From the IMG/VR virus record IMGVR_UViG_3300037484_000944, positions 1-24,621 of that record: DNA of 24,621 nt, one strand, 5' to 3'. The notes beneath the pieces were generated by a model. It made no database searches. It saw only the letters and a program-made list of their open reading frames with translations, and was not told the DNA's origin. This stretch comes from a virus (Duplodnaviria; Caudoviricetes). The position numbers and the translations under genes are program-made. Shown piece after piece: positions 5,315 to 24,621 of this stretch. The number at the start of each line of letters is the position of its first letter. Positions within the stretch are counted from its first letter, which is position 1.

Positions 5315-5857
5315 TTACAGAGGAATGTCGTCGTCTAGCTCGTTGGCGCCGTAGTCGAACGAGTCATCGTCAAAGGCGCGGCTGGCCTGTAGCTTGGTGG
5401 CTTGTTTCGGTGCCTGGCGTGGCGCCTGGTTTTTTCTGCTGGATTTCCAGGCCAACAGGTCACCCTTCAGCGACCGGTCCAGTGTCAGCACGTCGGCTTG
5501 CGAGAGCTCTTCTTTGAGCGCTAGCCCTCCGATTCTGTTCACCCAGCGGACACGCTCCCGCAGCATGCCCTCCTGGTCCTCCTCGTGAGCCACGACAATC
5601 GCACATTCGCACGACCCGAGACCGGACATATCGGCGAGCGCTTCCCCGCTCCACCCTGCCGCCTCGAGGCTCTCGAACGTCCGGTCCTTGGTCTTGTCGG
5701 TGAAGTATCCATACCAGGTTAGCCGGCGCCCCTTGGCTGGCCCGTCCTGCGTGATCTCGAAGCGGACCGCGACCTGGTCCTTGCCGCCGCTGGTACGGCC
5801 GAATGCGTGCTCGACTGCTCGAGCCGTGTAGGTGCCTTGTTCGGTGAGAAGAGCCAT
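5315..5857 (-). CDS. Phage single-stranded DNA-binding protein (DUF669-like)
   Basis: Start MALLTEQGTY after AAGGA; acidic tail ending DDDIPL; directly follows the AAA ATPase. Confidence 0.75.
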   Translation of the reverse strand: MALLTEQGTYTARAVEHAFGRTSGGKDQVAVRFEITQDGPAKGRRLTWYGYFTDKTKDRTFESLEAAGWSGEALADMSGLGSCECAIVVAHEEDQEGMLRERVRWVNRIGGLALKEELSQADVLTLDRSLKGDLLAWKSSRKNQAPRQAPKQATKLQASRAFDDDSFDYGANELDDDIPL

Positions 5858-5886
5858 GTCTGTTTTCCTTTCGTGTTGCGTGAGTC

Positions 5887-7497
5887 CTATGCGGCCGCGC
5901 GCGTCTTGGCGCGCAGCCTGTCGGCAATCTTGGCTAGCTGCTTGGTGTTGTCGCCAGCCTTTTCGATCATGGCCGTTGCCTTGACTTTGGTCTCGTCGTC
6001 GAGCTTCGCTACGAGCTCGGCGCATTCTTCGAGCAGCGCCTTTGCGGATGAAGGCCGCGCGTTCTTCACTGCTGCCGCGAATTCCTCCCACGAAAGGGGC
6101 AGCTCCTCGGGGAGCGAGTAGCGATTCCCCGCGTCCCACGCCGGACGGTGCTCGGTGTGCAGTACCCGAGACCCTGTTCCGACACCACGGATGCGACCGC
6201 TCGAGTCCTTCGAAGTCAGGGTTTCATAGTTGGCGAACAGGACCGCAGAGGGCCACTCCTTGAGCAGAGCGGCGGCTTTTCCGTGGACTTTCAGCTCGTA
6301 CCGGTCGAAGTCGTCCCCGGCTGGATTGCGGAACGTCTTGACCTGGGAGTGAGCGATGACGACGACGTTCATTTGCCGCTTGGCTCGAATCTCATCTAGC
6401 CGTTGGAGTAGGTCGCGCCAGACCGTGAGAGCATCACCGAATCCTTTGCCATAGCCGAAATCTTCGATCGACTTCTTGCCTCCGCGCTTGCAGACGTCGT
6501 CCCAGATAAGGGGCTCGATCCAGTCTGCGGTATCGACGACCACAGTCTTGAACTCGTGGTCCCCAGAGAGCAGAGTTTGCAGCGCCTCGAGCACGTCGTC
6601 CCACGACTGCGGGACGGGGAACCTGTCAACGTCAAGGTGGTTGGTCCCCTCGGGCTCACTGATGTAGATCGGGTTGGGTGCGTCTGCCGCGAACGAGGAC
6701 TTGCCGACCTTCTCTGGACCGTACAGGACGCAGCAGATCGGGGCGGCTACGACACCTTTCGTGATGGATGCAATCGTCATACGTGACATGGTTGTGTTCT
6801 CCTTTTTTGAGTCTTGTCTGGGAGCGACCCGCCCTCGCTGGAGCTCCGGGCAGACGTTGCGCGCTGGACACCACAGTCTTCCGCAGTGCTCGCCGACGCG
6901 GGGTTTGTTGTCGCGTTGCATGATGCGGATTAGGCGGTCTCGGACGCGAACAAGTTCGTGGATCCCGAGCAGCGACTGCCGTGGTGTCACCCGCTTATCC
7001 CCCAGGTACTGGTACGTCACAGTCGCGTTGCGACAACCCATCGCCTTGCACGCGCAGTACGCCGCGAACCCGAGCTGGAGAGACTCCGATGGATCGCCAG
7101 CGCTCGTCTTGCCGGACTTCCAGTCGTTCACGTGCACATAGTCGTCGGTCACGATGACGAGGTCCGCCGTTCCAACGATGGAACCTTCCGGTGCTTGCGA
7201 GTAGTCACGGTGTCCGCCTGTGATCGGCAGAGCGATGACGTTCGCGGATTCATCGAATGAGAAGGCCTGCTCGATGAGATAGTCTCCCTCGGGCAAGGCA
7301 CGCTCGCAATGCTTTCGCCAGGTCTCGAACCACGACTCATCACACTCGACGGGGTCTCCCCGGAGATAGGTCTCGATGAGCTTGTGACGGCGAGTCCCCT
7401 CAATCCCGGCTGGACCTGACTCGTCTTCCCAGTCTAGCGTTAGCCAGTACTTGCACTGATCGGCAAGCTGAAGCTTCGATGCTGAGAGCTGATGCAT
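5887..7497 (-). CDS. Fusion of PD-(D/E)XK (Cas4/RecB-like) nuclease and AAA_24/Sak4-like ATPase
   Basis: N-half: LSASKL..C, GTADL...DWKSG, CGRLWCPARNVC. C-half: Walker A GPEKVGKS, Walker B VVVD, IAHSQ. Internal RBS and ATG at 6789. Confidence 0.85.
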   Translation of the reverse strand: MHQLSASKLQLADQCKYWLTLDWEDESGPAGIEGTRRHKLIETYLRGDPVECDESWFETWRKHCERALPEGDYLIEQAFSFDESANVIALPITGGHRDYSQAPEGSIVGTADLVIVTDDYVHVNDWKSGKTSAGDPSESLQLGFAAYCACKAMGCRNATVTYQYLGDKRVTPRQSLLGIHELVRVRDRLIRIMQRDNKPRVGEHCGRLWCPARNVCPELQRGRVAPRQDSKKENTTMSRMTIASITKGVVAAPICCVLYGPEKVGKSSFAADAPNPIYISEPEGTNHLDVDRFPVPQSWDDVLEALQTLLSGDHEFKTVVVDTADWIEPLIWDDVCKRGGKKSIEDFGYGKGFGDALTVWRDLLQRLDEIRAKRQMNVVVIAHSQVKTFRNPAGDDFDRYELKVHGKAAALLKEWPSAVLFANYETLTSKDSSGRIRGVGTGSRVLHTEHRPAWDAGNRYSLPEELPLSWEEFAAAVKNARPSSAKALLEECAELVAKLDDETKVKATAMIEKAGDNTKQLAKIADRLRAKTRAAA

Positions 7498-11941: not shown

Positions 11942-12042
11942 CGTTTCTCGAGTTCCTCGATAAGCACTTCACCGGTTGCGCCATCGTGCTGCTGATCGTG
12001 GTGTGGTGGTGCACCGAGACTCTGGCGAAGAGGCGCTCATGA
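11938..12042 (+). CDS. Small hydrophobic peptide (34 aa)
   Basis: GTGA/ATGA overlaps; CAIVLLIVVWWC. Confidence 0.5.
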   Translation: MTFLEFLDKHFTGCAIVLLIVVWWCTETLAKRRS

Positions 12043-12386
12043 CGGACCCCGAGGTCTACGACGTCGGCGACGTGGCCCGCATCCTGAAGTGCACCCGCAG
12101 GATGGCGGCGACCCTGATGCGCGAAGCGGGGGCGTTCGAACTTGGCGAGAGCAACTGGCGGATTCCTAGAGCGAGGTTGGAGCGATGGCTGAGCGCGACG
12201 GGTTCTACAGGCGCGGGCGGTTCTGGTGGGTTCGGACGGATCCGGTCACGAGGAAAGCGCGGACGACCCACTGCACGAGCCTTGCAGCGGCTCGGGCCTG
12301 GCGAGGACGCCGAGAGCTCGAGGCCGTTGATCCGAGCCACGCAGCCGCGGAAGCGGCGACCCTCGGTGAATGGATCGGAAGACTGA
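12039..12386 (+). CDS. xis: Excisionase-like winged HTH protein
   Basis: VYDVGDVARILKC...WRIPRARLERWL, directly upstream of the integrase. Confidence 0.75.
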   Translation: MTDPEVYDVGDVARILKCTRRMAATLMREAGAFELGESNWRIPRARLERWLSATGSTGAGGSGGFGRIRSRGKRGRPTARALQRLGPGEDAESSRPLIRATQPRKRRPSVNGSED

Positions 12387-13444
12387 TCGAGGCCAAGACG
12401 CCGGTCCGCTCGGAAGCTACGATGCAGATCTACCGGCAGAAGCTCGGGCACTTCGTGCGCCTGTGGGGCAACGACTGTCGGCTCGCCGAGGTCGGCCCCG
12501 ACTTGGTCGACGCCTACGTTCGCCAGCGGCGCTCGGAGGACGTCACCGACCAGACCATCGGCAAGGAGCTCTCCCACCTGAAGGGTCTGCTCCGGCTCGC
12601 GAAGCGGTCGAAGGTTTGGGCTGGAGACCTCGAGACAATCCGCCCGGACCTGAATGCCACCTACGTGCCCCGCAAGCGGGCCCTGACGCGCGAGGATGTC
12701 ATCAGGCTCCTGGCGCAGCTTCCGCCGAACCGCGGCGCCCTGGTGGCCATCTGCGTGGCCCTGGGGGTCCGCCTGAGCGAGGCCTACCGGCTACTCCCGA
12801 CCGATGTCGACCTCGCTGCCGGACGCGTGTTCGTCGGTGGAACCAAGACGCAGGGCTCCCGCCGGTGGATTCCGATCCTCTCCGTCTACCGGCCGCTGCT
12901 CGAGGGGGCCGTCGAGTACCTTCCGCTCTGCCCGTGGAAGCACGTCCACGAGTCGCTGGACTCCGCGTGCCGGCGGGCAGGGATCGAACACTGCTCACCG
13001 AACGACCTCCGCCGGACCCATTCGACCCTGCTGGTCGAGTCCGGGGTCGACAGGGACGTGGTCCGCCGGCTCCTGGGCCACACAACCTCGGCGCTCGTGG
13101 ACAGGGTCTACGGACAGCCAACCCCCGAGGCCCTCGGGCTCCTGGCCGAGGCCAAACTGGCACGGGTCAGTCCGATACGCCAACGCTACAGTGTTGCCGA
13201 CACAGACCCACTTCCTGCCGCAACTACCGTCAACCAGATCGGCCAACATAGCCGTGGCGACCATCAGCAGATAGCCTGGAATACCCTCGATCGTCGGAGC
13301 AAATGCCAGTCGTGGCCCGGTGAGACCTGGGGCCCGGGAGGGAGACTCGGCGCAGGAACGCGACAGTCGACGGAGGGCGTTGGGCTGTCGCTCGAGCAGT
13401 GGTCCCTCGCCTATTCGGCCCACCGGTTGGCGGTGCTGGCGTGA
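12185..13444 (+). CDS. int: Tyrosine recombinase/integrase
   Basis: GVRLSEA (R), GTKT (K), NDLRRT, LGHT...Y catalytic motifs. Confidence 0.93.
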   Translation: MAERDGFYRRGRFWWVRTDPVTRKARTTHCTSLAAARAWRGRRELEAVDPSHAAAEAATLGEWIGRLIEAKTPVRSEATMQIYRQKLGHFVRLWGNDCRLAEVGPDLVDAYVRQRRSEDVTDQTIGKELSHLKGLLRLAKRSKVWAGDLETIRPDLNATYVPRKRALTREDVIRLLAQLPPNRGALVAICVALGVRLSEAYRLLPTDVDLAAGRVFVGGTKTQGSRRWIPILSVYRPLLEGAVEYLPLCPWKHVHESLDSACRRAGIEHCSPNDLRRTHSTLLVESGVDRDVVRRLLGHTTSALVDRVYGQPTPEALGLLAEAKLARVSPIRQRYSVADTDPLPAATTVNQIGQHSRGDHQQIAWNTLDRRSKCQSWPGETWGPGGRLGAGTRQSTEGVGLSLEQWSLAYSAHRLAVLA

Positions 13445-13689
13445 CCCCGATCTCCTACACCGAGCACACCAGGGCTGCCCCTGTCCCGTGTCCGGTCTGT
13501 CACCCAGACGGAGAGGGGCGAGACGAGTGCTCATGGGACGACGAGTACTGGTGCCCCGGGTGCCACCAGTGGGTGTGCTTCCACAGCGGAGGCGGCGACG
13601 AAGACGATCCAGGGTCGCTCCCGAACCTGTGTGACGACTGCTGGTTTGCTCTGCAGGAAGAGCGTTGGCCTGCCGAGGTGCTGGCATGA
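13441..13689 (+). CDS. Zn-finger-like hypothetical protein
   Basis: CPVC, CPGC and CDDC motifs; GTGA overlap. Confidence 0.65.
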   Translation: MTPISYTEHTRAAPVPCPVCHPDGEGRDECSWDDEYWCPGCHQWVCFHSGGGDEDDPGSLPNLCDDCWFALQEERWPAEVLA

Positions 13690-14180
13690 CCCGAGCCAGA
13701 GTCTACGTCGCCAGCAAGGCCGAGCACGGACCGCTCTGGCGCGAGCTGCGGGCAGCCGGGGAGCCCATCATCAGCACCTGGATCGACGAGTCCGGTCCGG
13801 GGCAGACCGCGGACTGGCCAGGGCTGTGGTGGAGGTGCATCCAAGAGGCGTCAACGGCCACCGCGCTGGTCTGCTACTGCCGCGAGGGTGAGCGACCACT
13901 GAAGGGAGCCCTAGTCGAGGTCGGGGCAGCTCTCGCTCACGGTGTGCCGGTGTACTGGGTAGGCCCGGAGCAATCGGTGACGAGGCATCCGCTCGTGACC
14001 GTGTGCCTGACCCTGCTCGATGCGCTCAACCAAGCAGCAGTCTACCAGTCTGACCCAGGGCAGGAGAGGCCTTTGGTCGACCTCGGTACTCGGGAGGTGG
14101 CTCGACGAGTCCAGTTCGTGGAAGCAACGGAGGAGCGCAGACGTCGCGAGAGAGGCCGCGCTCATGTTCGCGGAGGGTGA
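13686..14180 (+). CDS. Nucleoside 2-deoxyribosyltransferase-like protein
   Basis: VYVAS...STWID...GALVEVGAALAHGVPVYWVG. Confidence 0.7.
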   Translation: MTRARVYVASKAEHGPLWRELRAAGEPIISTWIDESGPGQTADWPGLWWRCIQEASTATALVCYCREGERPLKGALVEVGAALAHGVPVYWVGPEQSVTRHPLVTVCLTLLDALNQAAVYQSDPGQERPLVDLGTREVARRVQFVEATEERRRRERGRAHVRGG

Positions 14181-14183
14181 CCA

Positions 14184-14375
14184 ATGACCGACAGGCCGCT
14201 GATCTTATCCGACGAATCCGTGCGGGGAATCCTCGCGGGAACCAAGACGATGACCCAGCGGCTCATGGGTAAGAATCCGGTCAAGTGGGCTGTTGGGGAT
14301 CGCATCTGGGTCAAGGAGGCGTGGGCAATCTACGATCTCCTGCTGGCCATCACGTTCCGGAGGATCAATGCCTGA
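14184..14375 (+). CDS. Short ASCH-like phage protein, probably internally deleted
   Basis: RPLILSDESVRGILAGTKTMTQR...VGDRIWVKEAW...ITFRRI in only 63 aa. Confidence 0.6.
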   Translation: MTDRPLILSDESVRGILAGTKTMTQRLMGKNPVKWAVGDRIWVKEAWAIYDLLLAITFRRINA

Positions 14376-14586
14376 CCAGGCCATCACGCTGACCGACGGC
14401 ACGCGCACGGTGGAGTGTCGAGTCACGCACCGAAGCAGGCGGTTCATCGAAATCCAGTGGAACGGCCAGGGCGTGCGCTTCGTGCACCGACTCGCGCCGC
14501 ACCGTGGTCGGCTCAAGGACGCCGAGGTCAACAGCCCGTGGCACGTCACTGAGGGCGAGCTGCGGGGAGCGGAGGTCGACAGATGA
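14368..14586 (+). CDS. Hypothetical protein
   Basis: GGAGG RBS, start MPDQAITL. Confidence 0.65.
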   Translation: MPDQAITLTDGTRTVECRVTHRSRRFIEIQWNGQGVRFVHRLAPHRGRLKDAEVNSPWHVTEGELRGAEVDR

Positions 14587-14870
14587 GGCTTGTCGTTGCA
14601 TTCGTAGCCGCTATCAGCGCGGTGATACTCGCTATCGCGCTGTCGTCCGTCGCAGAAATGCTCGATTGGTGTGTGGTCGGCGCCGAATCAGGCCCCGGTC
14701 GTCGACCATGCCGTCTCGAGTGGATCGAGTCGATCGTCGAGCAGTGTCGTGGGGCTCACGTGCCAGTCCACGTGAAGCAGATCGATCTCAACGGCCGCGT
14801 ATCACACGACATGACGGAGTGGCCAGAATCACTGCGCATCCGCCAGTACCCGAAGGTCTTCAATGTCTGA
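14583..14870 (+). CDS. DUF5131 (Gp37/Gp68) C-terminal fragment with hydrophobic N-terminus
   Basis: LDWCVVGAESGPGRRP...W...VKQ...EWPESLRIRQYP. Confidence 0.7.
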   Translation: MRLVVAFVAAISAVILAIALSSVAEMLDWCVVGAESGPGRRPCRLEWIESIVEQCRGAHVPVHVKQIDLNGRVSHDMTEWPESLRIRQYPKVFNV

Positions 14871-15207
14871 TCATGCCAAGTGCTCGGTGTGCGGCAGCAA
14901 CTCGGAACTCCTCACTTGGCCCGGTAGATACGTGAGGGTAGCGTGCGCTACCAGCTTGTGTGTGACTGGGCCTCTGCGCACCAGTGTTGATGACGCATGG
15001 GACGCATGGGATACGCTACACGGGCCTCGTATCCCGGACGAGGTCAAGGAGATTGTCCTCTCTGCGTGGGCTCTCCTAGGAGAAGACGCTGACGAGGAAC
15101 GCTGGTGCCATGCGACACTCAAGGAAGCTGTCGAGGCTTGCCCGAGTGTGATTCTGATCGCCTGCGGATGCGTCGCGGGCGGCCCAACGGAGTACGAAGA
15201 GCGATGA
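14863..15207 (+). CDS. Zn-ribbon protein, Lar-like N-terminus
   Basis: CSVCG...VACATSLC...AWDAWD. Confidence 0.55.
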   Translation: MSDHAKCSVCGSNSELLTWPGRYVRVACATSLCVTGPLRTSVDDAWDAWDTLHGPRIPDEVKEIVLSAWALLGEDADEERWCHATLKEAVEACPSVILIACGCVAGGPTEYEER

Positions 15208-15506
15208 CCGACTACCTCGGCCACCCCACTGTCGCAGCAACCCGCCAGGCTCGGCAAGTCTGCAGAAACAGCATCCGCAAGGCGCAAGCGGACATCGCGA
15301 TCCTGGCTGTCGTCGTGCGCGAGCACCCGGGCCTCGCGCTGAAGGAACTCGCCCCACTGCTGCTCGGACGAACGTCGTGGACCAACCCGGTCGATACGAT
15401 CAAGCAGCAGATCGGAAGCGGATTGAACCGCCTCGGCAAGGCTGGTATTCGGGTCGAGCATGGCAGGGACGGAAATCCTACGCGGCTTTGGCCGGAGGAC
15501 GCATGA
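15204..15506 (+). CDS. Hypothetical protein, possible winged HTH
   Basis: ATGA overlap; VVREHPGLALKELAPLL. Confidence 0.65.
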   Translation: MTDYLGHPTVAATRQARQVCRNSIRKAQADIAILAVVVREHPGLALKELAPLLLGRTSWTNPVDTIKQQIGSGLNRLGKAGIRVEHGRDGNPTRLWPEDA

Positions 15507-15838
15507 CCGAATCCAAACCGTTCGCAGTCGGCGACATTGTGTGCGTGACCGGAGGGTGGACTCCGTCTGCCCCGCGCAATGTGATTAAGGTGATGAAGAA
15601 GTACGTGGTGCTCGACGACAAATCCAAGTGGACGCAGTGGGGGGCGCCCTACCCGCGTGCTCATTATGCGAGAGAGCGTCTCGTGCACGACACGCCAGAG
15701 CTGCGCGAACAATACAGACGCTACCTGTATCGATCGAAGCTGGATGCGGCCCTCAAGGATGCGAGGCTGGACGCGGCAACGCTAAACGCTGCGCTGCTCG
15801 TACTGCAGACGGCGCTGTCGGCAACGGAGGACGCATGA
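15503..15838 (+). CDS. Hypothetical protein
   Basis: GGAGG RBS; start MTESKPFAVGDIV. Confidence 0.75.
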   Translation: MTESKPFAVGDIVCVTGGWTPSAPRNVIKVMKKYVVLDDKSKWTQWGAPYPRAHYARERLVHDTPELREQYRRYLYRSKLDAALKDARLDAATLNAALLVLQTALSATEDA

Positions 15839-17349
15839 CCTCGATCTCCGACGTCCTCGAGGGCAGTGAGCGTTGGTGCGTGGTGCACTCGGAGGCGCTG
15901 GCTGCTCTGCGGGAGATGCCGGACTGCTCGGTTGACTCGGTTGTGACGGATCCTCCGGCTGGAATTTCGTTCATGGGGTCTGATTGGGACAAGGACAAGG
16001 GCGGCGCCGAGCAGTGGGTCGCGTGGCTCACCGAGGTGATGGGCGAGGTGTTTCGCGTTCTCAAACCCGGTGGCCATGCGTTCGTGTGGGCTTTGCCTAG
16101 AACGTCGCACTGGACTGGCACCGCGCTTGAGCGTGCTGGATTCGAGATCCGTGAAGTCGTCACACAGTTGTTCGGCAGCGGCATGCCAAAAAGTCTCAAC
16201 GTTTCCAAGGGGATTGACCAGAAGAACGGCACAACTGACCAGCGCGTTGTCTTGCACACGTACACGGCCGGCGGGAACGCGGGCACTCCGACTGCAGAGA
16301 AGGGCGGGACGTACTCGGTTGGATGTGAGAACTCTGCGCCGATCGAACTCACGGTCACGTCCGGCGGGTGCGAAGAGGCGAAGCGTTGGGATGGGTTTGG
16401 AACGGGGCTGAAACCGAGCGCTGAATTTTGGTGGCTCGCACGCAAGCCGTTCAAGGGAACGTTGGTCGACAACGTTCTAGCCCACGGCTGTGGCTGCCTC
16501 AACGTTGACGCCTGCCGCGTGTCTACCGATTGGACCGAGCGTCCCCCGTCGTGGCACGCAAGCGGTCACAGCGCCAAGCCAGAGGCCGACAAGATAGCAG
16601 CCCCGCCTGGAATCGGAATCCAGTGCCATCCTGCGGGGAGGTGGCCAGCTAATCTAGTTCTGGTCCACGCTGAGGGGTGCGGAGAACGGTGCATGGTGGG
16701 GTGTCCGGTTCGAGTGCTCGGCACACAGAGTGGGGAATCTTTGTCTAGCGGTGGGAAGCCAGCAAAAGTTGAGAGTAGAGATGCTTTCATGTGGGGTAAT
16801 TCTCCTGGTCCAACCACTGGCGGTCTGGGAGACACTGGTACAGCGTCCAGATATTTCCCTCAGTTCCGCCCCCACCCGCTCGACGACGTCACTCCGTTTT
16901 TGTACCAGGCCAAGCCGTCACGCCGCGAGCGTGAGATTGGTTGCGAGCACCTGCCGAAGGTGAGCCGCGGAAAGGCCACGAAGCGGAAGGATGGATCTGC
17001 TGCACTGGCCTGCCCGCGATCCGGAGCGGGGCGAAGCGGTGGCGCTCGCAACGTCCACACGACGGTCAAGAGCGTCGAGTTTATGAGATGGCTGGTGAGA
17101 CTTGTGACACCCCCGGGTGGCCTCTGCCTCGACCCATTCTGCGGAAGCGGAACGACGGGCGTTGCCTGCATTCTCGAGGGCTTCCGCTTCATCGGGCTCG
17201 AGATGAACGACAACACGGACGTGGAGTCCGACGACTACGCGCCGTACGTCACGATCGCCAGGGCTCGCATCTCGCACGCCGCGTCGTGGAAGCCGCCTGT
17301 CGTGACGGACAAGGCGCGAGAGCCGAAGCAAAGGAGTCTGTTCGGATGA
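15835..17349 (+). CDS. DNA amino-methyltransferase (N6A/N4C, beta-class order)
   Basis: SVDSVVTDPPA motif IV variant, RVLKPGG, HTTVKS, LDPFCGSGTTG motif I. Confidence 0.92.
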   Translation: MTSISDVLEGSERWCVVHSEALAALREMPDCSVDSVVTDPPAGISFMGSDWDKDKGGAEQWVAWLTEVMGEVFRVLKPGGHAFVWALPRTSHWTGTALERAGFEIREVVTQLFGSGMPKSLNVSKGIDQKNGTTDQRVVLHTYTAGGNAGTPTAEKGGTYSVGCENSAPIELTVTSGGCEEAKRWDGFGTGLKPSAEFWWLARKPFKGTLVDNVLAHGCGCLNVDACRVSTDWTERPPSWHASGHSAKPEADKIAAPPGIGIQCHPAGRWPANLVLVHAEGCGERCMVGCPVRVLGTQSGESLSSGGKPAKVESRDAFMWGNSPGPTTGGLGDTGTASRYFPQFRPHPLDDVTPFLYQAKPSRREREIGCEHLPKVSRGKATKRKDGSAALACPRSGAGRSGGARNVHTTVKSVEFMRWLVRLVTPPGGLCLDPFCGSGTTGVACILEGFRFIGLEMNDNTDVESDDYAPYVTIARARISHAASWKPPVVTDKAREPKQRSLFG

Positions 17350-17386
17350 CCACGGCCAGCCCATACTCGGAATTCGGGGTGATCGG

Positions 17387-17824
17387 ATGACCAACTTCGA
17401 CTCATGCGACTTCTACTCCTGCGACCCAGACGCCGAGCAGCTAGACTTTTCTGATCCAGAAGAGGCACTCGATGCGATCGTTGAGTCGCCGGTCTCGGAA
17501 TGGATCTCCGAGAACTCACCCGTCACGGTCCACGGGTGGCGGAGACGACCGCTCGCGCAAGCCGATATCGACCACGTGTTCGAGCGGTTACTCAGCGCCG
17601 CGGTCGAGGAACTCGACGAAGAGTGCGGCGACCCCGAAGGAGACCACGAGCCGCTATCTCCCGACGACTTCGAGCGCGTCCTGACCGAGATGGGCTCAGC
17701 GAAGCTGATTCTGGCTGATTTGTGGTCCTCTTGGGCGTGTGACCAGGTCGCGAAACGCGAATACTCCGCGGAGGAGCTGCGGGAGGTGTTTGCTGATGAG
17801 ATTGCAGAGGAGTCCGGACAGTGA
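17387..17824 (+). CDS. Acidic hypothetical protein
   Basis: 145 aa, coupled to the next gene. Confidence 0.75.
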   Translation: MTNFDSCDFYSCDPDAEQLDFSDPEEALDAIVESPVSEWISENSPVTVHGWRRRPLAQADIDHVFERLLSAAVEELDEECGDPEGDHEPLSPDDFERVLTEMGSAKLILADLWSSWACDQVAKREYSAEELREVFADEIAEESGQ

Positions 17825-18165
17825 CCCCCGAATACCGCAAGCGCTTCGTTCGCGAGGACACCGACCACTACGGCACATGGTGTCCTGTCTCGCATCACCC
17901 TTACAGTCCACGGTCCCCGCGCTTCTGCGACCCATGGACGGACAATCTCAGTACTCCGCTCTGGGTAAGGATCGAGGGCTGCAAGCACGCCGCGGTGCTG
18001 TCGCTGCTCAAAGGTCCAGTTCCGGCAGACAGGGCTCGGGCAATCCGTCTCGAGGCGATCCGGATCGCTGGAGCGACCGGCAACCGTCGAGCCTACTCGT
18101 CATGGTCGGAGAGAGACCAGGTTGATCGGAGCCTGGCAAAGTGGATGAGGAGGCACGGGCTGTGA
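17821..18165 (+). CDS. Hypothetical protein
   Basis: GAGGAG RBS, GTGA overlaps. Confidence 0.65.
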   Translation: MTPEYRKRFVREDTDHYGTWCPVSHHPYSPRSPRFCDPWTDNLSTPLWVRIEGCKHAAVLSLLKGPVPADRARAIRLEAIRIAGATGNRRAYSSWSERDQVDRSLAKWMRRHGL

Positions 18166-18650
18166 CCGCCCTCGGCGTTGACCCGGGTCTGCGGTGCACC
18201 GGCTGGTCCCTGCTCGATAGGCGCGAGGTGCTGGACAGCGGCTCTATCCGGATACCGAATGGCTTCCGTGGGGACACAGTATTCGAGATGACGGCGCGGT
18301 TCGCAGACGTCTTGCTGCGCCTCGTTCGGCCATGGCCCACGCTCGCCGTCGTCGAGCGGTACGTCGACCAGGGTCCGGAGCGCCGCGGGAACCCGGCTGG
18401 ATTTCTGGTAGCGGAGCTCGCCGGAGCCCTGGCTGATGAGTGCCGTCACGCCGGAATCGAACCCGTCATGGTCACCCGCAACGAGGCACTGCGCGCTGTC
18501 GTGATGGGTCGCCGGGGACGGGGCGCGCCCAGCGAGAAAGACGCAAACAAGGCGCTGGAGCTACTAGGAATACACCTTCCAAACCAGCACACCCGCGATG
18601 CGGCGATGGCGGCTATCTGCGGAAGCAAAACGAAAGGACGCCTCTGGTGA
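18162..18650 (+). CDS. ruvC: RuvC-like Holliday junction resolvase
   Basis: LGVDPGLRCTGW, VVE, HTRDAA acidic catalytic pattern. Confidence 0.88.
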   Translation: MTALGVDPGLRCTGWSLLDRREVLDSGSIRIPNGFRGDTVFEMTARFADVLLRLVRPWPTLAVVERYVDQGPERRGNPAGFLVAELAGALADECRHAGIEPVMVTRNEALRAVVMGRRGRGAPSEKDANKALELLGIHLPNQHTRDAAMAAICGSKTKGRLW

Positions 18651-18991
18651 TCAACCTGAACGACCTCGCTCAACAGCTGCACGAACAGGCGAAACGCTCT
18701 GGCTTCTACGACCGCGGCATCGACTACCCAGATCGGATCGCGTGCATGCATGAGGAGCTGAGCGAGTTGTTCCACGCCTATCGCAAGGGAACGCTGACCG
18801 ACCTCTGCGACAAGCGCGGCTGTCCAATGACGAACGAGGCCGAGGAGCTCGCTGACCTGGTCATCAGGGCACTGGACCTCGCGGCTGCGCGTGGCGTCGA
18901 CATCGACCGAGCTGTGATGCTCAAGGCCGAGTACAACGCAACCAGGCCTCGACTGCACGGTGATGCTCAGGCTCCAGGAGAACGTGCATGA
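18647..18991 (+). CDS. MazG-like nucleotide pyrophosphohydrolase
   Basis: MHEELSE...EELADLVIRALD...KAEYNATRPRLHG. Confidence 0.88.
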   Translation: MINLNDLAQQLHEQAKRSGFYDRGIDYPDRIACMHEELSELFHAYRKGTLTDLCDKRGCPMTNEAEELADLVIRALDLAAARGVDIDRAVMLKAEYNATRPRLHGDAQAPGERA

Positions 18992-19173
18992 TGAGCCATG
19001 ACCCGCTCGAGATCATGCACGTACTGGCCGCCATAGGCGTCCTGACGCGCTCCGGACTCGGGGAGGCTCTGCTCTTCGCGTCTGCTGACGGGCGCCTCTG
19101 GGGCGCAGTGGTGGGCCCACAAGAGCAGGACCTTGGGGTTCGGCTGCTGCTGAGTCAGAGGGAGACGCCATGA
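18988..19173 (+). CDS. Hypothetical protein
   Basis: 61 aa, ATGA overlaps. Confidence 0.6.
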   Translation: MMSHDPLEIMHVLAAIGVLTRSGLGEALLFASADGRLWGAVVGPQEQDLGVRLLLSQRETP

Positions 19174-19355
19174 TTATAATTCAGATTTGGTCGCTCGGAG
19201 CAGTGTTTCACTTGATCCTGGCCGTATCTACCGTGCTGCTGAGCGAGCATCACGGAGGCTGGCATTTCACAGGAAGCGATGCGCTGAGGAGTATGAGAGG
19301 GGTCTCAGGGATGGCCGGCTGTGTCCCACCCAAGACTCAAACCAGGGGCGGGTGA
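19170..19355 (+). CDS. Small hydrophobic hypothetical protein
   Basis: 61 aa, hydrophobic N-terminus. Confidence 0.45.
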   Translation: MIIIQIWSLGAVFHLILAVSTVLLSEHHGGWHFTGSDALRSMRGVSGMAGCVPPKTQTRGG

Positions 19356-19359
19356 TTCC

Positions 19360-20346
19360 ATGAGGAAGTACGCCCAGATCCGACCGACTTTCTGGACACG
19401 CGGGAGCGGGAAGCTGCTACGCGGCAACCGAGATGCTCAGGTATTGGCGCTCTACCTCATGACGGCCCCGTCCTCGAGCAGAACCGGGCTCTACTACGCA
19501 CCCATGGTAGGGATACTGCACGACACCGGACTCTCCGAGGGTGCGTTCATGGGAGCACTCTCTGCCATCGCTGAGATTGCTCAGTACGACTTCAGTGAGG
19601 AGCTGGTCTGGCTTCCCAACGGGTGTCGCGAGCAGATGGGACTCGGTGATGGTGAGAGGATCCGGCCAAACGACAAAGCTCTCAAGTCGGTCCTCACTGA
19701 GCTTGAGGCCTTCGGATCACATCCGTTCGTGCTGGAATTCAGGACTCGTTACCTTCCTGGTTATGAAGCCCCTTCGAAGGGGGATGTTGTGGTCCACGGA
19801 AGGGGCATCCGTGACCATGGTATGCCCCCGGTTCCTGTTCCTGTTCCTGTTCCTGTTCCTCCGGATCCGGAAGGGGAGTGTGAGGGGAAACCAGGACCAG
19901 ACGGCCGGTCCAATTCTCTGATCGTGTGTCCAGGTCCGAACCTGGCTCTGGGCCAGTCGCAGATCGCGACCCTCGAGACGAACATGATGATCCCCAGGTG
20001 GGCGATCGACGTGATGCTCACCGAATGGTGTCTGGCACGCCAGGCGCGGGGAGACCTCCAGACCCTGAGAGCGTGGCGCACGTACGCCGGTAAGGACCTG
20101 CGGGAGCGGTGGAACAATCCGGCAATGCGCCCAAAGCGCCCAGAGACCCCCGAGGCCATCGCGGCACGCAAGGCAGCCCTCGAGGAGCGAGAGCGCCGGT
20201 GGATGGCCCGGGCACAAGCGGAGGGAGACGCCGAGCTCCGAGCGTGGGCGGTGGCACACCCAGACTCGACGCCTGCGGACAAGGCGCCCCCGAGCAAAGC
20301 GGAATTTCAACGGCGCCTGAGCGCGATAGGCGGACATGACGACTGA
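19360..20346 (+). CDS. Phage replication initiator-like protein
   Basis: MRKYAQIRPTFWT...LALYLMTAP...GLYY N-terminus, low-complexity linker, directly upstream of DnaB. Confidence 0.8.
   Translation: MRKYAQIRPTFWTRGSGKLLRGNRDAQVLALYLMTAPSSSRTGLYYAPMVGILHDTGLSEGAFMGALSAIAEIAQYDFSEELVWLPNGCREQMGLGDGERIRPNDKALKSVLTELEAFGSHPFVLEFRTRYLPGYEAPSKGDVVVHGRGIRDHGMPPVPVPVPVPVPPDPEGECEGKPGPDGRSNSLIVCPGPNLALGQSQIATLETNMMIPRWAIDVMLTEWCLARQARGDLQTLRAWRTYAGKDLRERWNNPAMRPKRPETPEAIAARKAALEERERRWMARAQAEGDAELRAWAVAHPDSTPADKAPPSKAEFQRRLSAIGGHDD
19831..19860 (+). repeat. (GTTCCT)5 microsatellite encoding VPVPVPVPVP
   Basis: Five exact 6-nt units. Confidence 0.95.
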
Positions 20347-21754
20347 CGCCATTCCCGGAACCGTCATCGAGTCCGAACACGCCGTCGCGTCAGCCGTGCT
20401 GACCAACCCATCCGTGCTGGACGTCGTGCGGGATCTGCTTGAGCCATTTGATTGCTTCGATCTTCTGACCCGACGTGTCCTTGAGTCCGCGTACAGGATT
20501 GACGACTCCGGCGAAGCCGTCGACCCGGTGTCGGTGATGACGGACCTTCAGGGCCGAGGTCACCTGTCATCGATGGGTGGGTCTCCCGCGATTGCCGAGC
20601 TGACCGACGGCTACCCGTACGTAACGGACGTTGCGAGCCACTGCCGAGCTGTGGCGGACAAGGCTCGTCTGCGGCGCATCGTGGATGCTGCCCGGATCAT
20701 CACCGGCGAGGGGGCTGGTCAGATAGACGACGTCGAAGCGTGGGCGCAGCGGTCCGAGCAACGGCTCTTCGACGCCTCTGCCGACCGATGTCGGAACTCC
20801 AGTGCGACCGAGACGCTCGCGCAACTCCTGCCGCGTGTCGCGCAAGACATGCAGGATCGGTGCGACGGCGGCGAGGCGTATCACGACGCTCACTACGTGC
20901 CGGTGCCGTGGCGAGCCGTGAAGCAAATCTTTCCAGCCGGACTCATGAGACCGAAGTTTCACGTTGTAGCCGGAAGACCCGGCATGGGGAAATCGGTGTT
21001 CTGCTCAGAACTCATGCGACAGGTGTGCGGCCCGCAGTGCGGGGGTCTGCTGTTCTCGCTCGAGATGACCAAGCTTGAATTGACTCAGCGCATGCTAGCA
21101 GCAGAAAGCAAGCGCCCGCTCGAGACTATTATGACTGGAGAGCCGGACTCAGATGACTGGCGGCTCATCACGACAGCGACCGAGAGGCTATCGATGTTAC
21201 CGATCGCGATCCGATACCGACCAGGCGCGACGGTCGCCACCATTCGGTCAACGATCCGCCGGGAAGCGGCTCGAATGCGACGCGAACAAGGCGTTGACCT
21301 TTCGCTCGTGGTGGTCGACTACCTGCAGCTCGTGAACCACGCTCGACAGCGGGGAGATACGCAGGAGACGGCAGTCGCGAATACGAGCAAGGCCCTGATG
21401 ACGATGGCGGGAGAGTTCGACGTTGCACTCGTCGGCGTGTCGCAGCTGAATCGCTCGCTCGAGGGACGCCCAAACAAGCACCCGGTGTTGAGTGATCTCC
21501 GCGAGTCGGGCGCCATCGAACAAGACGCCTACTCGGTTAACTTCCTTTACCGCGACGAGTACTACCGAGAGGACTCTCCGGACAAGGGGATCTGCGAGGT
21601 CATCACGGCCAAGCACCGCAACGGCCGAACTGGAACCGCGCGGCTGAAGTTCACGGGACAGTGGGGGCGCTTCGACAACATTGGAGGAGACGACGGCGAC
21701 TTCACCGACCTCGACGCCCCGACGAACTACCAGGACGTGGATGGCCCGTACTGA
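20336..21754 (+). CDS. dnaB: Replicative DNA helicase, DnaB family
   Basis: AGRPGMGKS, FSLEM, VVVDYLQL, SQLNR, SDLRESGAIEQDA, AKHRNG. Confidence 0.97.
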   Translation: MTTDAIPGTVIESEHAVASAVLTNPSVLDVVRDLLEPFDCFDLLTRRVLESAYRIDDSGEAVDPVSVMTDLQGRGHLSSMGGSPAIAELTDGYPYVTDVASHCRAVADKARLRRIVDAARIITGEGAGQIDDVEAWAQRSEQRLFDASADRCRNSSATETLAQLLPRVAQDMQDRCDGGEAYHDAHYVPVPWRAVKQIFPAGLMRPKFHVVAGRPGMGKSVFCSELMRQVCGPQCGGLLFSLEMTKLELTQRMLAAESKRPLETIMTGEPDSDDWRLITTATERLSMLPIAIRYRPGATVATIRSTIRREAARMRREQGVDLSLVVVDYLQLVNHARQRGDTQETAVANTSKALMTMAGEFDVALVGVSQLNRSLEGRPNKHPVLSDLRESGAIEQDAYSVNFLYRDEYYREDSPDKGICEVITAKHRNGRTGTARLKFTGQWGRFDNIGGDDGDFTDLDAPTNYQDVDGPY

Positions 21755-21779
21755 TCAACCAAACCAAGGAGAAAACATC

Positions 21780-22259
21780 ATGAAAGACATCATCGTACCA
21801 AGGAGTAGGAACATGAAGATCCAATTCGTAGACAAGGTAAGCAGCTGGGCAGAGGCACTCACGACGGCGCTGGAGAAGTGCTCCGGCTACTTCGGAGACG
21901 ACTCAACCGATTGGCATGATGCCTCCGAGGAACTACAGGAGCTTGCCGAGACAGGAGAGCTGCTGCGCGTGGTCGATTCAGATGACGGTCACGACGCACT
22001 GGTCGTGACTGTGGGCCCTACGTTCTTGGCACGGCAGGTGCTGCGTGGCCTCCAGGGTCAGATCGCCAATCAGGCATGCGAGAAGCTATTCCACGTGGAC
22101 GGCGCTAGGTTGAAGTCGGGCGGGCCGAAGATGAAGCTGGTTCACACCGATAAAGGGCGGGCGTACTGCAAATGGACGACCGACACTGGTGATGAGCGGC
22201 GGGAGTGGTTCGATGCTGAAGAGCTCGAGCCGTGGAAGGAAGACGCAAGTGTCAGCTGA
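21780..22259 (+). CDS. Hypothetical protein with C-terminal DUF2158/YodC-like domain
   Basis: AAGGAG RBS; RLKSGGPKM...CKW...F..EELE. Confidence 0.7.
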   Translation: MKDIIVPRSRNMKIQFVDKVSSWAEALTTALEKCSGYFGDDSTDWHDASEELQELAETGELLRVVDSDDGHDALVVTVGPTFLARQVLRGLQGQIANQACEKLFHVDGARLKSGGPKMKLVHTDKGRAYCKWTTDTGDERREWFDAEELEPWKEDASVS

Positions 22260-22755
22260 ACAACGAGCAGGAATCAACCTGCACGAACTGGCGACACGCC
22301 TCAAGAACGCTGTCACGACAGGCGCAACGGCTCCGCTCGTCGTTGCGGGAGACGTCGCTCGGCTTGCCGAGAACTGGGAGGACTACCGACTGGAGGCCGG
22401 AAAGGTCGAGTGCACGACCTGGCTCCAGGCTATCTGCGGAGGAGGCCGAAACCTGGACTGGTGGCTCAAGCGGCACGAGGCTGTCGAGAAGCTGGGCGAG
22501 GCATCGCGGCGTGTTGTCGACCACCAGGTAGCCGTGTGGATCACGAGGCTCAAAGCCGCTCCTGACCTACAGCGCGTCATGTTCGTTCTGCGGCGCGAGC
22601 AAAAAAAGAACCACGGGATTCCGCTCACGAAAGAGATGGCGGTCCGAGCTCTGCGAGCCGAGGAGCTTATCGAGCGCGCGAAGCACGAGACGTGCGGGAG
22701 GTGCAGAATTCTCGAGAGGGTCATCCGGGAACTCGGAGGCGAGGTTCCGGAGTGA
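22249..22755 (+). CDS. Hypothetical protein directly upstream of the array
   Basis: GTG start after GGAAGGA; 168 aa; C-terminal CGRC. Confidence 0.75.
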   Translation: MSAEQRAGINLHELATRLKNAVTTGATAPLVVAGDVARLAENWEDYRLEAGKVECTTWLQAICGGGRNLDWWLKRHEAVEKLGEASRRVVDHQVAVWITRLKAAPDLQRVMFVLRREQKKNHGIPLTKEMAVRALRAEELIERAKHETCGRCRILERVIRELGGEVPE

Positions 22756-22926
22756 ATGATCAGCAACGAAGCGATGGTCTTGCAACGAGCGAGTGCATGT
22801 CAACGAAGCGAGGCGCCACCAACGAGCGACCAATGCGCAACGAAGCGACGACCGGCCAACGGAAAAGCGCCCCCGGTTTCACCGAGTGACCAAAAGCCAA
22901 CGAAGAGAGAGCGTCCCAACGAACGA
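22756..22926 (+). repeat. Dual-repeat TIGR-like array (upstream)
   Basis: CAACGAAGCGA at 22764/22801/22838 alternating with CAACGAGCGA at 22783/22820, unique 8-nt gaps, 37-nt period; degenerate copies at 22857, 22880, 22898, 22917. Confidence 0.88.
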
Positions 22927-22945
22927 ACGAAACGAGGCAACCCCA

Positions 22946-23878
22946 ATGACTGAACCAACGAAGCAACTGAAAGCCATCGAGCGAAAACTGAAACGCAAGC
23001 AGCCCTTGGCTCCGCCTTCGGAAGATCCGAGGACGGAGCTCAAGCGGCTCGTCAGGACGCATAGTGCTCTGACGAAGGCCAGCGTGGCCCTGCACCACAT
23101 GGCAAGCGACCGAACCAACCTGGAGACCGGAGAGATCATCCCGTGCCTGCTGCCAGCAGATGATCAAGCCGACATGCTCGAGGCGTCGAAGCGTCGAAGC
23201 AAGTCGGCTGCGACGCTGGAGGGGGTCCACTGTGCCGATGGAAAGCCAGGCATGCTGCACGAACTCAGGAAGCTGGACGTCTACAACCTGTTCCTGAAGC
23301 AGGCCTTCGGCTTTGGCCCCGTGGTGTGCGCGTATCTTTGCGCCATGGTCGATATCCACCGGGCCGAGAAACCAAGCCAGCTGATCCGGTACTGTGGGTA
23401 TGCCTGCATCGACGGCAAGGCTGAGCGGAGACAGGAAGGATTCGCCCCACGGACCGGAGCGACGGGCAATCCAGAGGCGCGGGGGACGTACAACGCGGCG
23501 CTGAAGACCCGCATCTGGCAGGCCATGGGATCACTCTGGAAGAACGCAGCCAAGTCAGGGTGTACGACCAAGTACCTCACGCGGTGGCAACAGGTGAAAG
23601 CGCGCAAGCTGCTCCAGGGTCAGACGAAGGGCAAGGCGCATGACGCCGGACGTCGAGCAGCCACGGACCTGTTCATCTACGATCTGTACCTGGTCTGGAG
23701 AGCCATTGAGGGCTTGCCGTCATGGGTGACGTGGTACGACTGGACCAGGGGATACGAACACGGGCGTGGTCCACTGCCGCGCGAGAACGCGCCCCGTATG
23801 CTGACCGTCGAGGAAGCGCTTGAGTTGGTTGGCAATGTCGGGGCGAAGGAATCAACTGCCGCGATAGCGGCGGAGTGA
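22946..23878 (+). CDS. tasA: TasA-like Nop/IS110-related RNA-binding protein without a nuclease domain
   Basis: Coiled coil ELKRLVRTHSALTK; GFGPVVCAYLCAMVDIHRAEKPSQLIRYCG; YNAALKTRIW; KGKAHDAGRR...FIYDLYLVWR. No DEDD/HNH domain. Flanked by dual-repeat arrays. Confidence 0.8.
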   Translation: MTEPTKQLKAIERKLKRKQPLAPPSEDPRTELKRLVRTHSALTKASVALHHMASDRTNLETGEIIPCLLPADDQADMLEASKRRSKSAATLEGVHCADGKPGMLHELRKLDVYNLFLKQAFGFGPVVCAYLCAMVDIHRAEKPSQLIRYCGYACIDGKAERRQEGFAPRTGATGNPEARGTYNAALKTRIWQAMGSLWKNAAKSGCTTKYLTRWQQVKARKLLQGQTKGKAHDAGRRAATDLFIYDLYLVWRAIEGLPSWVTWYDWTRGYEHGRGPLPRENAPRMLTVEEALELVGNVGAKESTAAIAAE

Positions 23879-23880
23879 TA

Positions 23881-24106
23881 GCGAAAGTCGAGCAGCGAAG
23901 CGAACCTTGCGCAACGAGCGAAAGACGATCAACGAAGTGATGCTGTGACAACGAGCGAGCGCCCCGCAACGAAGCAATTGATCGGGAACGAGCGAAGCCA
24001 CTTCAACGAAGTGACCGAAGCGCATCGAGCGAATGGCGCTAAACGAAGAGAGAACGACACATCGAGCGATCGCGTAACAACGAAGCGACTACCCTAGAAC
24101 GTGAAA
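23881..24106 (+). repeat. Dual-repeat TIGR-like array (downstream)
   Basis: 11-nt repeats at 23893, 23930, 23967, 24004, 24041, 24078 and 10-nt repeats at 23912, 23949, 23986, 24023, 24060; strict 37-nt period; 12 unique spacers. Confidence 0.92.
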
Positions 24107-24107
24107 A

Positions 24108-24146
24108 CCCCCGGCTGGACTGCACATCCGACCGGGGGGAATTTCT
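24108..24146 (+). terminator. Hairpin closing the array; possible terminator or 3' stabilising stem
   Basis: CCCCCGG (24108-24114) pairs with CCGGGGG (24132-24138), followed by AATTTCT. Confidence 0.5.
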
Positions 24147-24184
24147 GACCTGACCTAAAGGGACCCTCGAAAGGTACCCCCAAA

Positions 24185-24621
24185 GTGATCAACCAACAAG
24201 TTCTCCAGGTGATCCAACAATCTACCACAGCCCCCGTCGCACCCCGCCCGCGGCCTCGCCCGCAGGGCATCCCATACAGCCACGAGCTCGCCTGGTTCAT
24301 CGGCGAGGCCCCGGCGGCCCTCGGGGCGAAGGGGACGCTCGGCAGCACCATCGCGTCGCTCGAACGCGGCGGCGGCCAGTCGTACCCGGAGCCGCGCCTC
24401 CCTGGAGGACCCGGGTACCGGGAGGGCGACGGAGCCAGGTACCGGCTGCTCGAGGCCCGTTGGCGGCAGATCGACCCAACAACGCGTTGTTGCCTGATGG
24501 CCCACTACAGCCCACCGCCGCGGGAGCCACGGGTCAAGTCACCGGGCCACGCAGGGGGCCAGCCCGTGGGGGCGGCCCTCGAGGTGCACGTCGGGCACGT
24601 CGCTGGAGCGGTGGCCCTGGT
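24185..24621 (+). CDS. Hypothetical protein, truncated by the window end
   Basis: GTG-initiated frame (MINQQVLQV...HELAWFIGE...) open to the window end; absent from the ORF track. Confidence 0.6.
   Translation, partial: MINQQVLQVIQQSTTAPVAPRPRPRPQGIPYSHELAWFIGEAPAALGAKGTLGSTIASLERGGGQSYPEPRLPGGPGYREGDGARYRLLEARWRQIDPTTRCCLMAHYSPPPREPRVKSPGHAGGQPVGAALEVHVGHVAGAVAL

Follow-up and report, generated by a model that had tools for sequence, protein, structure and literature searches.

The DNA analysed here, called the window throughout, is the whole of the IMG/VR virus record IMGVR_UViG_3300037484_000944 (24,621 bp; G+C content approximately 63%). Towards its right-hand end a gene for a protein of 310 amino acids, tasA, is flanked on both sides by arrays in which two short repeats, here termed the edge and the loop repeat, alternate with short unique spacers, an arrangement which we describe as a very probable dual-repeat TIGR-TasA system. 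The published systems with which it is compared are taken from Faure et al. (PMC12045711), from PMC13421893 and from the preprint of Xu et al. (10.64898/2026.09.09.750476). The features of the locus, all on the plus strand, are the following (nt, nucleotides).

22249-22755, +: conserved partner gene, approximately 168 amino acids, GTG start at 22249, Shine-Dalgarno-like GGAAGGAAG at 22234-22242
22747-22862, +: upstream TIGR array, three units with a 37-nt period and six unique spacers
22881-22926, +: fourth unit, degenerate and shifted in register relative to the other three, seen as a fuzzy repeat chain and a motif copy with one mismatch
22946-23878, +: tasA, 310 amino acids, coiled coil and Nop domain, GAGG 8 nt before the ATG
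22957-22984, +: loop-like repeat AACGAAGCAA, 9 nt, then edge-like repeat ATCGAGCGA, within codons 4-13 of tasA
23876-24106, +: downstream TIGR array, six head-to-tail 37-nt units, each edge (9 nt), spacer A, loop (10 nt), spacer B
24108-24146, +: terminator-like hairpin CCCCCGG...CCGGGGG followed by GAAUUUCU, found by folding

The downstream array

The edge-type repeat of the downstream array is AACGAGCGA (or ATCGAGCGA), 9 nt in length, with intact copies at 23913, 23950, 23987, 24024 and 24061. The two outermost copies are incomplete: the first, at 23876, is truncated at its 5' side (TGATAGCGA, only AGCGA being kept) and overlaps the stop codon of tasA, and the last, at 24098, is truncated at its 3' side (AACGTGAAA, only AACG being kept). 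The loop-type repeat, AACGAAGYGA (10 nt), lies at 23894, 23931, 23968, 24005, 24042 and 24079. Both repeats begin with AACGA and finish with GCGA, and all repeat steps in the register table are exactly 37 nt. A first-pass annotation of this DNA had reported a strict 37-nt period with 12 unique spacers, which direct reading and the register table bear out (12/12 distinct 8-mers), and had remarked that the base following each spacer is usually C and three times G or A, as is the case (C 9/12, G 2/12, A 1/12). Its starting point of 23881 is corrected here to 23876/23880, overlapping the tas stop codon.

The sequence CGAGCGA is kept in all five internal edge repeats. The longer motif CGAGCGA-N9-AACGAAG, with at most one mismatch, occurs eight times in the window, with every copy on the plus strand and within one or other of the arrays that flank tas; in 100 dinucleotide-shuffled sequences the mean was 0.02 copies, and none had as many as eight. 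At a lag of 37 the self-identity is 63% over 148 nt, the next-best lag in the range 30-45 giving 43%, and Tandem Repeats Finder made only a partial detection (23880-23937, period 19, score 60). The spacers, 18 in the two arrays together, differ among themselves to the degree expected of random 8-mers, with a mean Hamming distance of 5.9 out of 8, and their G+C content of 59% tracks that of the genome (64% in this comparison). Spacer A of unit 1 (AAGTCGAG, 23885-23892) and of unit 2 (AAGACGAT, 23922-23929) differ at two of eight positions, their partner B spacers being unrelated; this could be the trace of a duplication or chance, approximately 0.65 such pairs being expected among 153.

The array RNA has no structure of its own (fold z +0.71). 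The segment 24098-24150, which runs from the last edge copy through the terminator-like hairpin, folds at -21.3 kcal/mol (z -2.79), and 3 of 200 shuffles were as stable; the rule of the terminator scan did not pick up the hairpin at 24108-24146.

Assignment of the repeats and length of the spacers

The first-pass annotation left it undecided by eye which repeat is edge and which is loop, and the ends of the arrays now allow them to be assigned. An array, by the published rule, begins and ends in a truncated edge repeat and has a terminator after it (PMC12045711). The window has four array ends, each of them in the register of AACGAGCGA, and the only freely varying repeat position is position 8 of the loop (C/T/A), in the longer and A-richer of the two repeats. 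On account of these ends, and of the extra A and the variable position in the longer repeat, AACGAGCGA is read as the edge repeat and AACGAAGYGA as the loop repeat. The extra A and the free position fit a loop without base-specific contacts. In two related loci (L005 and L006) truncation likewise affects the counterpart of the edge repeat, which is of the GAGCGAGCCA type, ahead of a strong T-tract terminator.

The base after the 8-mer is C for 15 of the 18 spacers in the window, and for 17/18 and 20/23 in two close relatives (L035 and L036, counted by hand). The next clade (L003 and L015), again with a 37-nt period, has homologous repeats of 10 and 11 nt and spacers of 8 nt. From this C bias and these repeat lengths it is most likely that the extra C opens the repeat that follows, in which case 8+8 bases vary, the same number as in SpTIGR, the guide of which has a total of 16 nt of variable sequence (PMC12045711). 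With the leading C counted the repeats would thus be 10 and 11 nt and the spacers 8 nt; otherwise they are 9 and 10 nt with spacers of 9 nt. The earlier description of two repeats which share both ends and differ by one A therefore stands, while its suggestion of a 9-nt spacer with a biased last position is less likely than a base belonging to the next repeat. In relatives whose repeats end in CCA, the CCA read on the tas strand adjoins the spacer, which is also its position in the solved guide of TaTasR, and this orientation sets the plus strand as the RNA strand.

The Tas protein

In Pfam the 310-amino acid protein has only a sub-threshold match to the C-terminal domain of the IS110 family, and in PHROGs it falls in a 'transposase' family. 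Against PDB sequences phmmer gave TaTasR (9MTY) as the single best match (E 3.4e-7), this entry being the TasR-tigRNA-DNA model of Faure et al. (PMC12045711); with a profile of 30 homologues (A1) the E values are 1.7e-23 for 9MTY and 2.9e-15 for the SpTasH/TasH entries. The AlphaFold model (mean predicted local distance difference test, pLDDT, 85; predicted template modelling score, pTM, 0.80) retrieved TasH or TasR chains at Foldseek ranks 1-10 throughout, followed by IS621 recombinases. By VIA-align residues 25-300 superpose on residues 64-307 of TasH with Z 20.1 (root mean square deviation 2.4, 218 aligned) and on residues 112-321 of TasR with Z 18.7, compared with Z of approximately 14 for IS621 and 6.3 for archaeal Nop5. 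Sequence identity to the solved Tas proteins is approximately 20%.

Ahead of the coiled coil there are no more than about 24 residues, modelled with low confidence, and neither the HNH domain of TasH nor the RuvC domain of TasR has a counterpart, for which reason the predicted fold is that of a nuclease-free TasA. SpTasH cuts its own precursor using Y289 and H296 in a flexible C-terminal loop (PMC13421893). The profile alignment places them 1-2 residues away from Y264 and H272, which lie in a loop of pLDDT 60-66 and are conserved among the homologues (Y264 in at least 90%, H272 invariant in 30/30). By analogy, TasA would likely process its own precursor through the Y264/H272 loop. A soil-metagenome relative is approximately 90% identical, and 23 of the 26 listed differences in tasA are at third codon positions; the gene is under purifying selection.

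The upstream array and the partner gene

The upstream array has edge-register elements at 22747 (truncated, CCGGAGTGA), 22784, 22821 and 22858 (truncated, AACGG), with loop repeats at 22765, 22802 and 22839. Its first edge repeat, the truncated one, contains the stop codon of the gene before it. No significant hairpin follows this array (z 0.06), so that the simplest reading is a single transcript which would span the upstream gene, the upstream array, tasA and the downstream array. The degenerate fourth unit reads ACCGAGTGA - CCAAAAGCC - AACGAAGAGA - GAGCGTCCC - AACGAACGA. The repeat-like elements at 22957-22984 may correspond to the 'intragenic' units of the TIGRFinder preprint, or to a decayed unit co-opted as coding sequence; the N-terminal stretch of TasA in which they lie is modelled poorly (pLDDT 56-57 for residues 1-20).

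The end of the upstream array (22858-22880, AACGGAAAAGCGCCCCCGG...) resembles the end of the downstream array together with the first arm of its terminator (24098-24120, AACGTGAAAACCCCCGG...), and an array-plus-terminator module may have been duplicated, the upstream copy decaying afterwards. Both the upstream gene (22750-22755) and tasA (23872-23878) finish ...GGAGTGA directly before an array, a pattern also seen at gene ends beside arrays in two relatives (L001, 2675-2681 and 4024-4030; L009, approximately 666-672), and the residues AAE form the C-terminus of many TasA homologues. It seems that the truncated edge repeat with which an array opens constrains the gene end, or that the gene end constrains the repeat.

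The partner gene specifies an all-helical protein with a C-terminal CxxC (model pLDDT 86). Of 19 related loci, 11 have a homologous open reading frame (ORF) immediately upstream of tas and in the same orientation (besides the window, L001, L003, L004, L006, L007, L010, L015, L016, L034, L035 and L036). Members of this family are approximately 165 amino acids long; a CxxC near the C-terminus is present in eight of ten aligned members, and W49 and W64 are invariant (alignment A2). The family has no match in Pfam, PHROGs, PDB sequences or the protein atlas, and Foldseek named no family. Among ParB-family DNA-binding domains the model scores Z 6.3 against ParB (6s6h) and Spo0J (1vz0), 5.6 against KorB (1r71), 4.9 against KorB again, 4.6 against SopB and 4.2 against VirB, with Noc at Foldseek rank 5. 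All of these are below Z 8, the VIA level under which helical models match by chance, and Raf1 chains score as high (Z 6.9); the likeness of the modelled protein to ParB-family DNA-binding domains is weak.

Related loci and variation of the spacers

A Tas profile search returned 14 IMG/VR loci and two loci on contigs of metagenome-assembled genomes, 16 in all. A periodic array at a lag of 36-38 lies beside tas in 13 of them; copies of repeats are visible by eye in L002 and L009, and none was found by eye beside tas in L010. The repeat sequences vary from clade to clade. In 13 of 14 parsed loci the final two bases of edge and loop agree (GA/GA in eight, CA/CA in five); the exception is L008, the ends of which disagree as parsed and the register of which is uncertain. 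Faure et al. state that edge and loop repeats have start and end motifs in common (box D and box C) and covary in the box next to the spacer (PMC12045711), and the agreement seen in these sequences is this expected covariation.

The same two repeats at the same spacing are present in L001 (Tas 65% identical), L035 and L036, none of the spacers of which matches any in the window; in the same pattern scan L034 has a mostly different repeat pattern. Among 313 spacers from 14 loci there is one shared 8-mer in 44,333 between-locus pairs, with 0.68 expected. The first-pass annotation had held that spacers identical across distant homologous loci would speak against guides, and such sharing is found here only at the level of chance. 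Contigs of three DNA sequencing runs cover parts of the locus. One of these, a contig of 151 nt from a soil run, matches 24097-24211 (115 nt) with three substitutions and two gaps, an identity of approximately 96%, and its leftward continuation has the identical loop repeat, with a spacer on either side that is unlike those of the last pair in the window.

Within arrays, identical or one-mismatch spacers recur: in G003 (the L004 record) on the reverse strand at 14761-14870, in G004 (the L006 record) at 4949/5025 and 5272/5310, and in L008 at 1390/1465, the recurrences including two adjacent identical whole units. Pairs of spacers with at most one mismatch number 15 of 4,495 within loci and 27 of 44,333 between loci (Fisher p 2.5e-6); when up to two mismatches are allowed and G003 and G004 are excluded the difference is weak (p 0.08). 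These counts suggest that new guides arise in part from units which are duplicated and then diverge.

Proposed function and the search for targets

Every sequence-level defining feature of dual-repeat TIGR-TasA that is testable is present at this locus. We consider it very likely that it is a dual-repeat TIGR array behind a nuclease-less tasA, predicted to be transcribed with tasA and cut into 37-nt tigRNAs, which a TasA dimer would use to bind, and likely not to cut, DNA matching both spacers; such DNA might be that of rival phages, of the host or of the phage itself. Guides rather than slippage had been favoured in the first-pass annotation, with a pseudo-symmetric two-spacer guide bound by a dimer; the former is supported by the adjacent Tas protein, in sequence and in predicted fold, and by the freely varying spacers, and the latter is the published TIGR-Tas design (PMC12045711). 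The guide function of the array is supported by membership of this family, and not by a found target.

The steps are modelled on the family (PMC12045711, PMC13421893 and 10.64898/2026.09.09.750476). The partner gene, the upstream array, tasA and the downstream array would form one transcript, and TasA would cleave this precursor in every edge repeat (AACGAGCGA) through the C-terminal loop carrying Y264 and H272. Each tigRNA (37 nt) would then consist of half an edge repeat, spacer A, the loop repeat AACGAAGYGA, spacer B and half an edge repeat, and in the dimer the edge halves, brought together, would be gripped by one TasA protomer and the loop repeat by its partner. Base pairing would put spacer A on one strand of the DNA target and spacer B, over the adjoining 8-9 bp, on the opposite strand. 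The bound complex, being free of nuclease, would be expected to act as a roadblock or repressor of transcription or replication, an action shown for another TasA in the preprint of Xu et al. (10.64898/2026.09.09.750476).

The published cut geometry consists of 8-nt 3' overhangs (PMC12045711), and it follows that one target strand should read spacer A and then the reverse complement of spacer B. Both orders were searched with gaps, as A8+N0-4+rc(B8) and as rc(B8)+N0-2+A8, where rc denotes the reverse complement. The window contains 17 bipartite matches to its own spacers with at most three mismatches, the best having two, a number close to the approximately 13 estimated by hand. Matches to three upstream-array units cluster within 500 bp (5410-5886), but an equal density is reached in 37% of shuffles, and self-targeting within the window was rejected. 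The exact pattern of unit D1 was found in none of five related records. A target design with a one-base overlap between its halves was also discarded, since for 9-nt spacers ending in C the middle base would need to be C and G simultaneously.

Several points weigh against the reading of the locus as a dual-repeat TIGR-TasA system with this mode of action. Against shuffled spacers the window search at up to three mismatches gave 14 matches, the shuffled mean being 19.1. When 62 units from five phages were searched against six phage genomes (289 kb), none had an exact bipartite match, and with up to one mismatch there were seven matches in the true register and 12 in the shifted-register control. 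For unit D2 a scan of IMG/VR returned 72 loci (13 with no gap, 18 with a gap of 1 and 41 with a gap of 2), which were rejected as targets since they look like background (approximately 15 per 16-mer) together with one conserved coding motif. Paired matches built from adjacent spacers, which the first-pass annotation had proposed as a check, are thus not enriched over controls in the window, the six phage genomes or the IMG/VR scan; short spacers give such bipartite searches little power, and the difficulty with natural targets is likewise stated in PMC12045711 and in the preprint 10.64898/2026.09.09.750476. To these must be added that none of the listed sequencing runs which hold the locus is an RNA run, that the unit is 37 nt where a 'uniform 36 nt' is stated for dual-repeat systems, that the repeats end in CGA where those of TaTasR end in CCA, that the U-tract after the hairpin is weak (UUU), and that the equivalence of the Tyr and His residues rests on a loop alignment off by 1-2 residues.

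None of the D2 matches had the CG middle demanded by 9-nt spacers. The conserved motif among them, GCAAGACGATTNTCACAGCA, is a coding motif of approximately 35 low-GC phage contigs (30-55% G+C, among L037-L108) which matches D2 when a gap of 2 nt is allowed, and it makes up the excess of loci at that gap. It resembles a conserved Cys-rich protein motif of an unrelated phage group, and its match to D2 is very probably a coincidence.

Alternative explanations

The same TIGR-TasA system might be put to a use other than that of a plain roadblock, TasA loading or tethering the upstream helical, likely ParB-like, protein at guided sites for silencing, condensation or segregation. In 11 of 19 loci tasA has the partner gene beside it, in each case upstream and on the same strand, and here the array begins in its stop codon; its modelled product resembles ParB-family DNA-binding domains (Z 4.2-6.3), and tasParB-tasA operons are known with arrays upstream, downstream and between the genes (PMC12045711). 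Since none of the structural scores rises above the chance level for helical models and Raf1 stands equally high, and since the protein has neither a sequence match in Pfam, PHROGs or PDB nor the N-terminal CTPase-type domain of ParB, we regard this use as rather unlikely. A broader proposal would treat the CxxC ParB-like helical protein, array, tasA and array as a fixed module in which guides bring a DNA-clamping or spreading partner to rival or host DNA, and in which arrays renew themselves by duplication of units and rapid replacement of spacers, the terminal guides already differing at flanks which are approximately 96% identical; this we hold to be quite doubtful.

Other explanations dispense with guides of the TIGR type. 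The arrays come directly after a replication module (a DnaD-like loader and the DnaB helicase) and a possibly ParB-like gene, and might be protein-binding iterons, belonging to an origin of replication or to a partition site, which replication or ParB-like proteins would recognise in the double-stranded DNA. Iterons are typically short repeats at a spacing of 18-19 bp, which is counted in favour of this reading. It becomes very improbable when set against the strand bias of the motif (8/8 copies on the tas strand), the strict alternation of two repeats, the terminator hairpin which closes the array, the company of a Tas protein in 13 of 16 loci despite differing repeat sequences, and the solved structures (PDB 9MTY and the TasH entries) in which such repeats are bound as RNA. 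A minisatellite arisen by slippage or unequal recombination, or a decaying and unused relic array, would account for the degenerate units at 22881-22926 and in the 5' end of tasA, and for the near-duplicate spacers within the arrays of relatives. Slippage copies whole units, yet here the repeats are kept while all 12 spacers differ like random 8-mers; the unit length is invariant, CGAGCGA persists in 5/5 internal edges, and tasA is intact and under purifying selection, so that this origin too is scarcely credible. A miniature CRISPR-like array, or another unrelated kind of guide array, would share the interspaced repeats and unique spacers, but two alternating repeats of 9-10 nt with spacers of 8-9 nt are far below the size of a CRISPR unit, the neighbouring gene is tas, none of the 30 ORFs scanned with PHROGs was assigned to a Cas family, and 22000-24621 has no Rfam match at E <=1; we attach practically no weight to it.

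Comparison with known systems

The array resembles those of the dual-repeat TIGR-TasA systems, of which FpTIGR of Flavonifractor plautii is the prototype (PMC12045711), in having two alternating short repeats and two short spacers per unit; in such systems the repeats are 8-12 nt and the spacers approximately 9 nt. With them the locus also shares arrays flanking a solo gene for a coiled-coil and Nop protein, carriage by a phage, the lack of adaptation genes nearby, and a truncated edge at each array end with a terminator after it. It differs in its unit of 37 rather than 36 nt (36-38 nt in relatives), known here as a period in DNA, and in repeats ending CGA rather than CCA, with spacers most likely of 8 nt plus a mostly-C base. 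The best structural match is SpTasH of Salicola phage CGphi29 (PDB 9W03, 9W04, 9VZX and 21KL; PMC13421893; Z 20.1), which is likewise phage-borne, has 16 nt of variable sequence, and carries the Tyr and His of its C-terminal flexible loop 1-2 residues off Y264 and H272 in the alignment; it differs in that its N-terminal HNH nuclease (residues 1-63) cuts DNA, where the protein in the window has approximately 24 disordered residues instead. TaTasR (9MTY) has a Nop domain, a coiled coil and pseudo-symmetric repeats sharing start and end motifs, but it carries a RuvC nuclease (its residues 1-111), spacers of 9 nt and UG/CCA boxes. The tasParB-tasA operons of Faure et al. have the same order of upstream gene, array, tasA and array, with repeats of approximately 10 nt; the upstream protein in the window has a weak likeness to ParB-family DNA-binding domains but shows no detectable ParB sequence signature or CTPase-type N-terminal domain, so that it may not be the equivalent of theirs.

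More distantly, the IS110/IS621 bridge-RNA recombinases and the archaeal box C/D small ribonucleoproteins (Nop5) have an RNA-binding fold of the same Nop type and, likewise, guides in which two segments pair with the target, whereas the window has no DEDD/RuvC-like or Tnp domain and no fibrillarin or L7Ae partner, and its guides stand in a regular array. CRISPR arrays also consist of interspaced repeats and unique guide-encoding spacers, but theirs are of a single repeat type of 25-36 nt with one long spacer per guide, and they need Cas and adaptation genes.

TIGR-Tas was described in 2025 and thousands of arrays have been catalogued since, so that the array as such is no discovery. The value of the locus lies in a compact example of TasA, with two arrays, ten guides and an effector of 310 amino acids in a high-GC temperate phage, with CGA boxes and a 37-nt unit, in a conserved partner gene outside known families, and in a direct instance of spacers being replaced among near relatives. 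The field is asking about the natural targets of the guides and the origin of new spacers, and on neither does the window alone give an answer.

Genomic setting

CheckV estimates the completeness of the record at 34%. Three of its genes outside the locus can be placed as follows.

12185-13441: tyrosine-type integrase
19321-20343: DnaD-like loader
20336-21751: DnaB helicase

Further genes specify a DNA methyltransferase, a RuvC-like resolvase and a pyrophosphatase. From the integrase and the set of phage genes, the record is taken to be a fragment of a temperate phage genome. Megablast of 12000-22000 against GenBank phages gave no matches, and tblastn of TasA against GenBank phages returned only three distant records at 27-30% identity (Ralstonia phage phiRSL1 twice, and one Microcystis phage). 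No tRNA genes were found in the window, nor did a sigma-70 promoter scan find any promoter. An ORF of 535 amino acids (5887-7494, minus strand) joins an exonuclease-like N-terminal half (phrog_69) to a half resembling the Sak4-like single-stranded DNA-annealing ATPase (phrog_124). Lastly, within the gene for the DnaD-like loader there is a perfect tandem repeat of five GTTCCT units (19831-19860).

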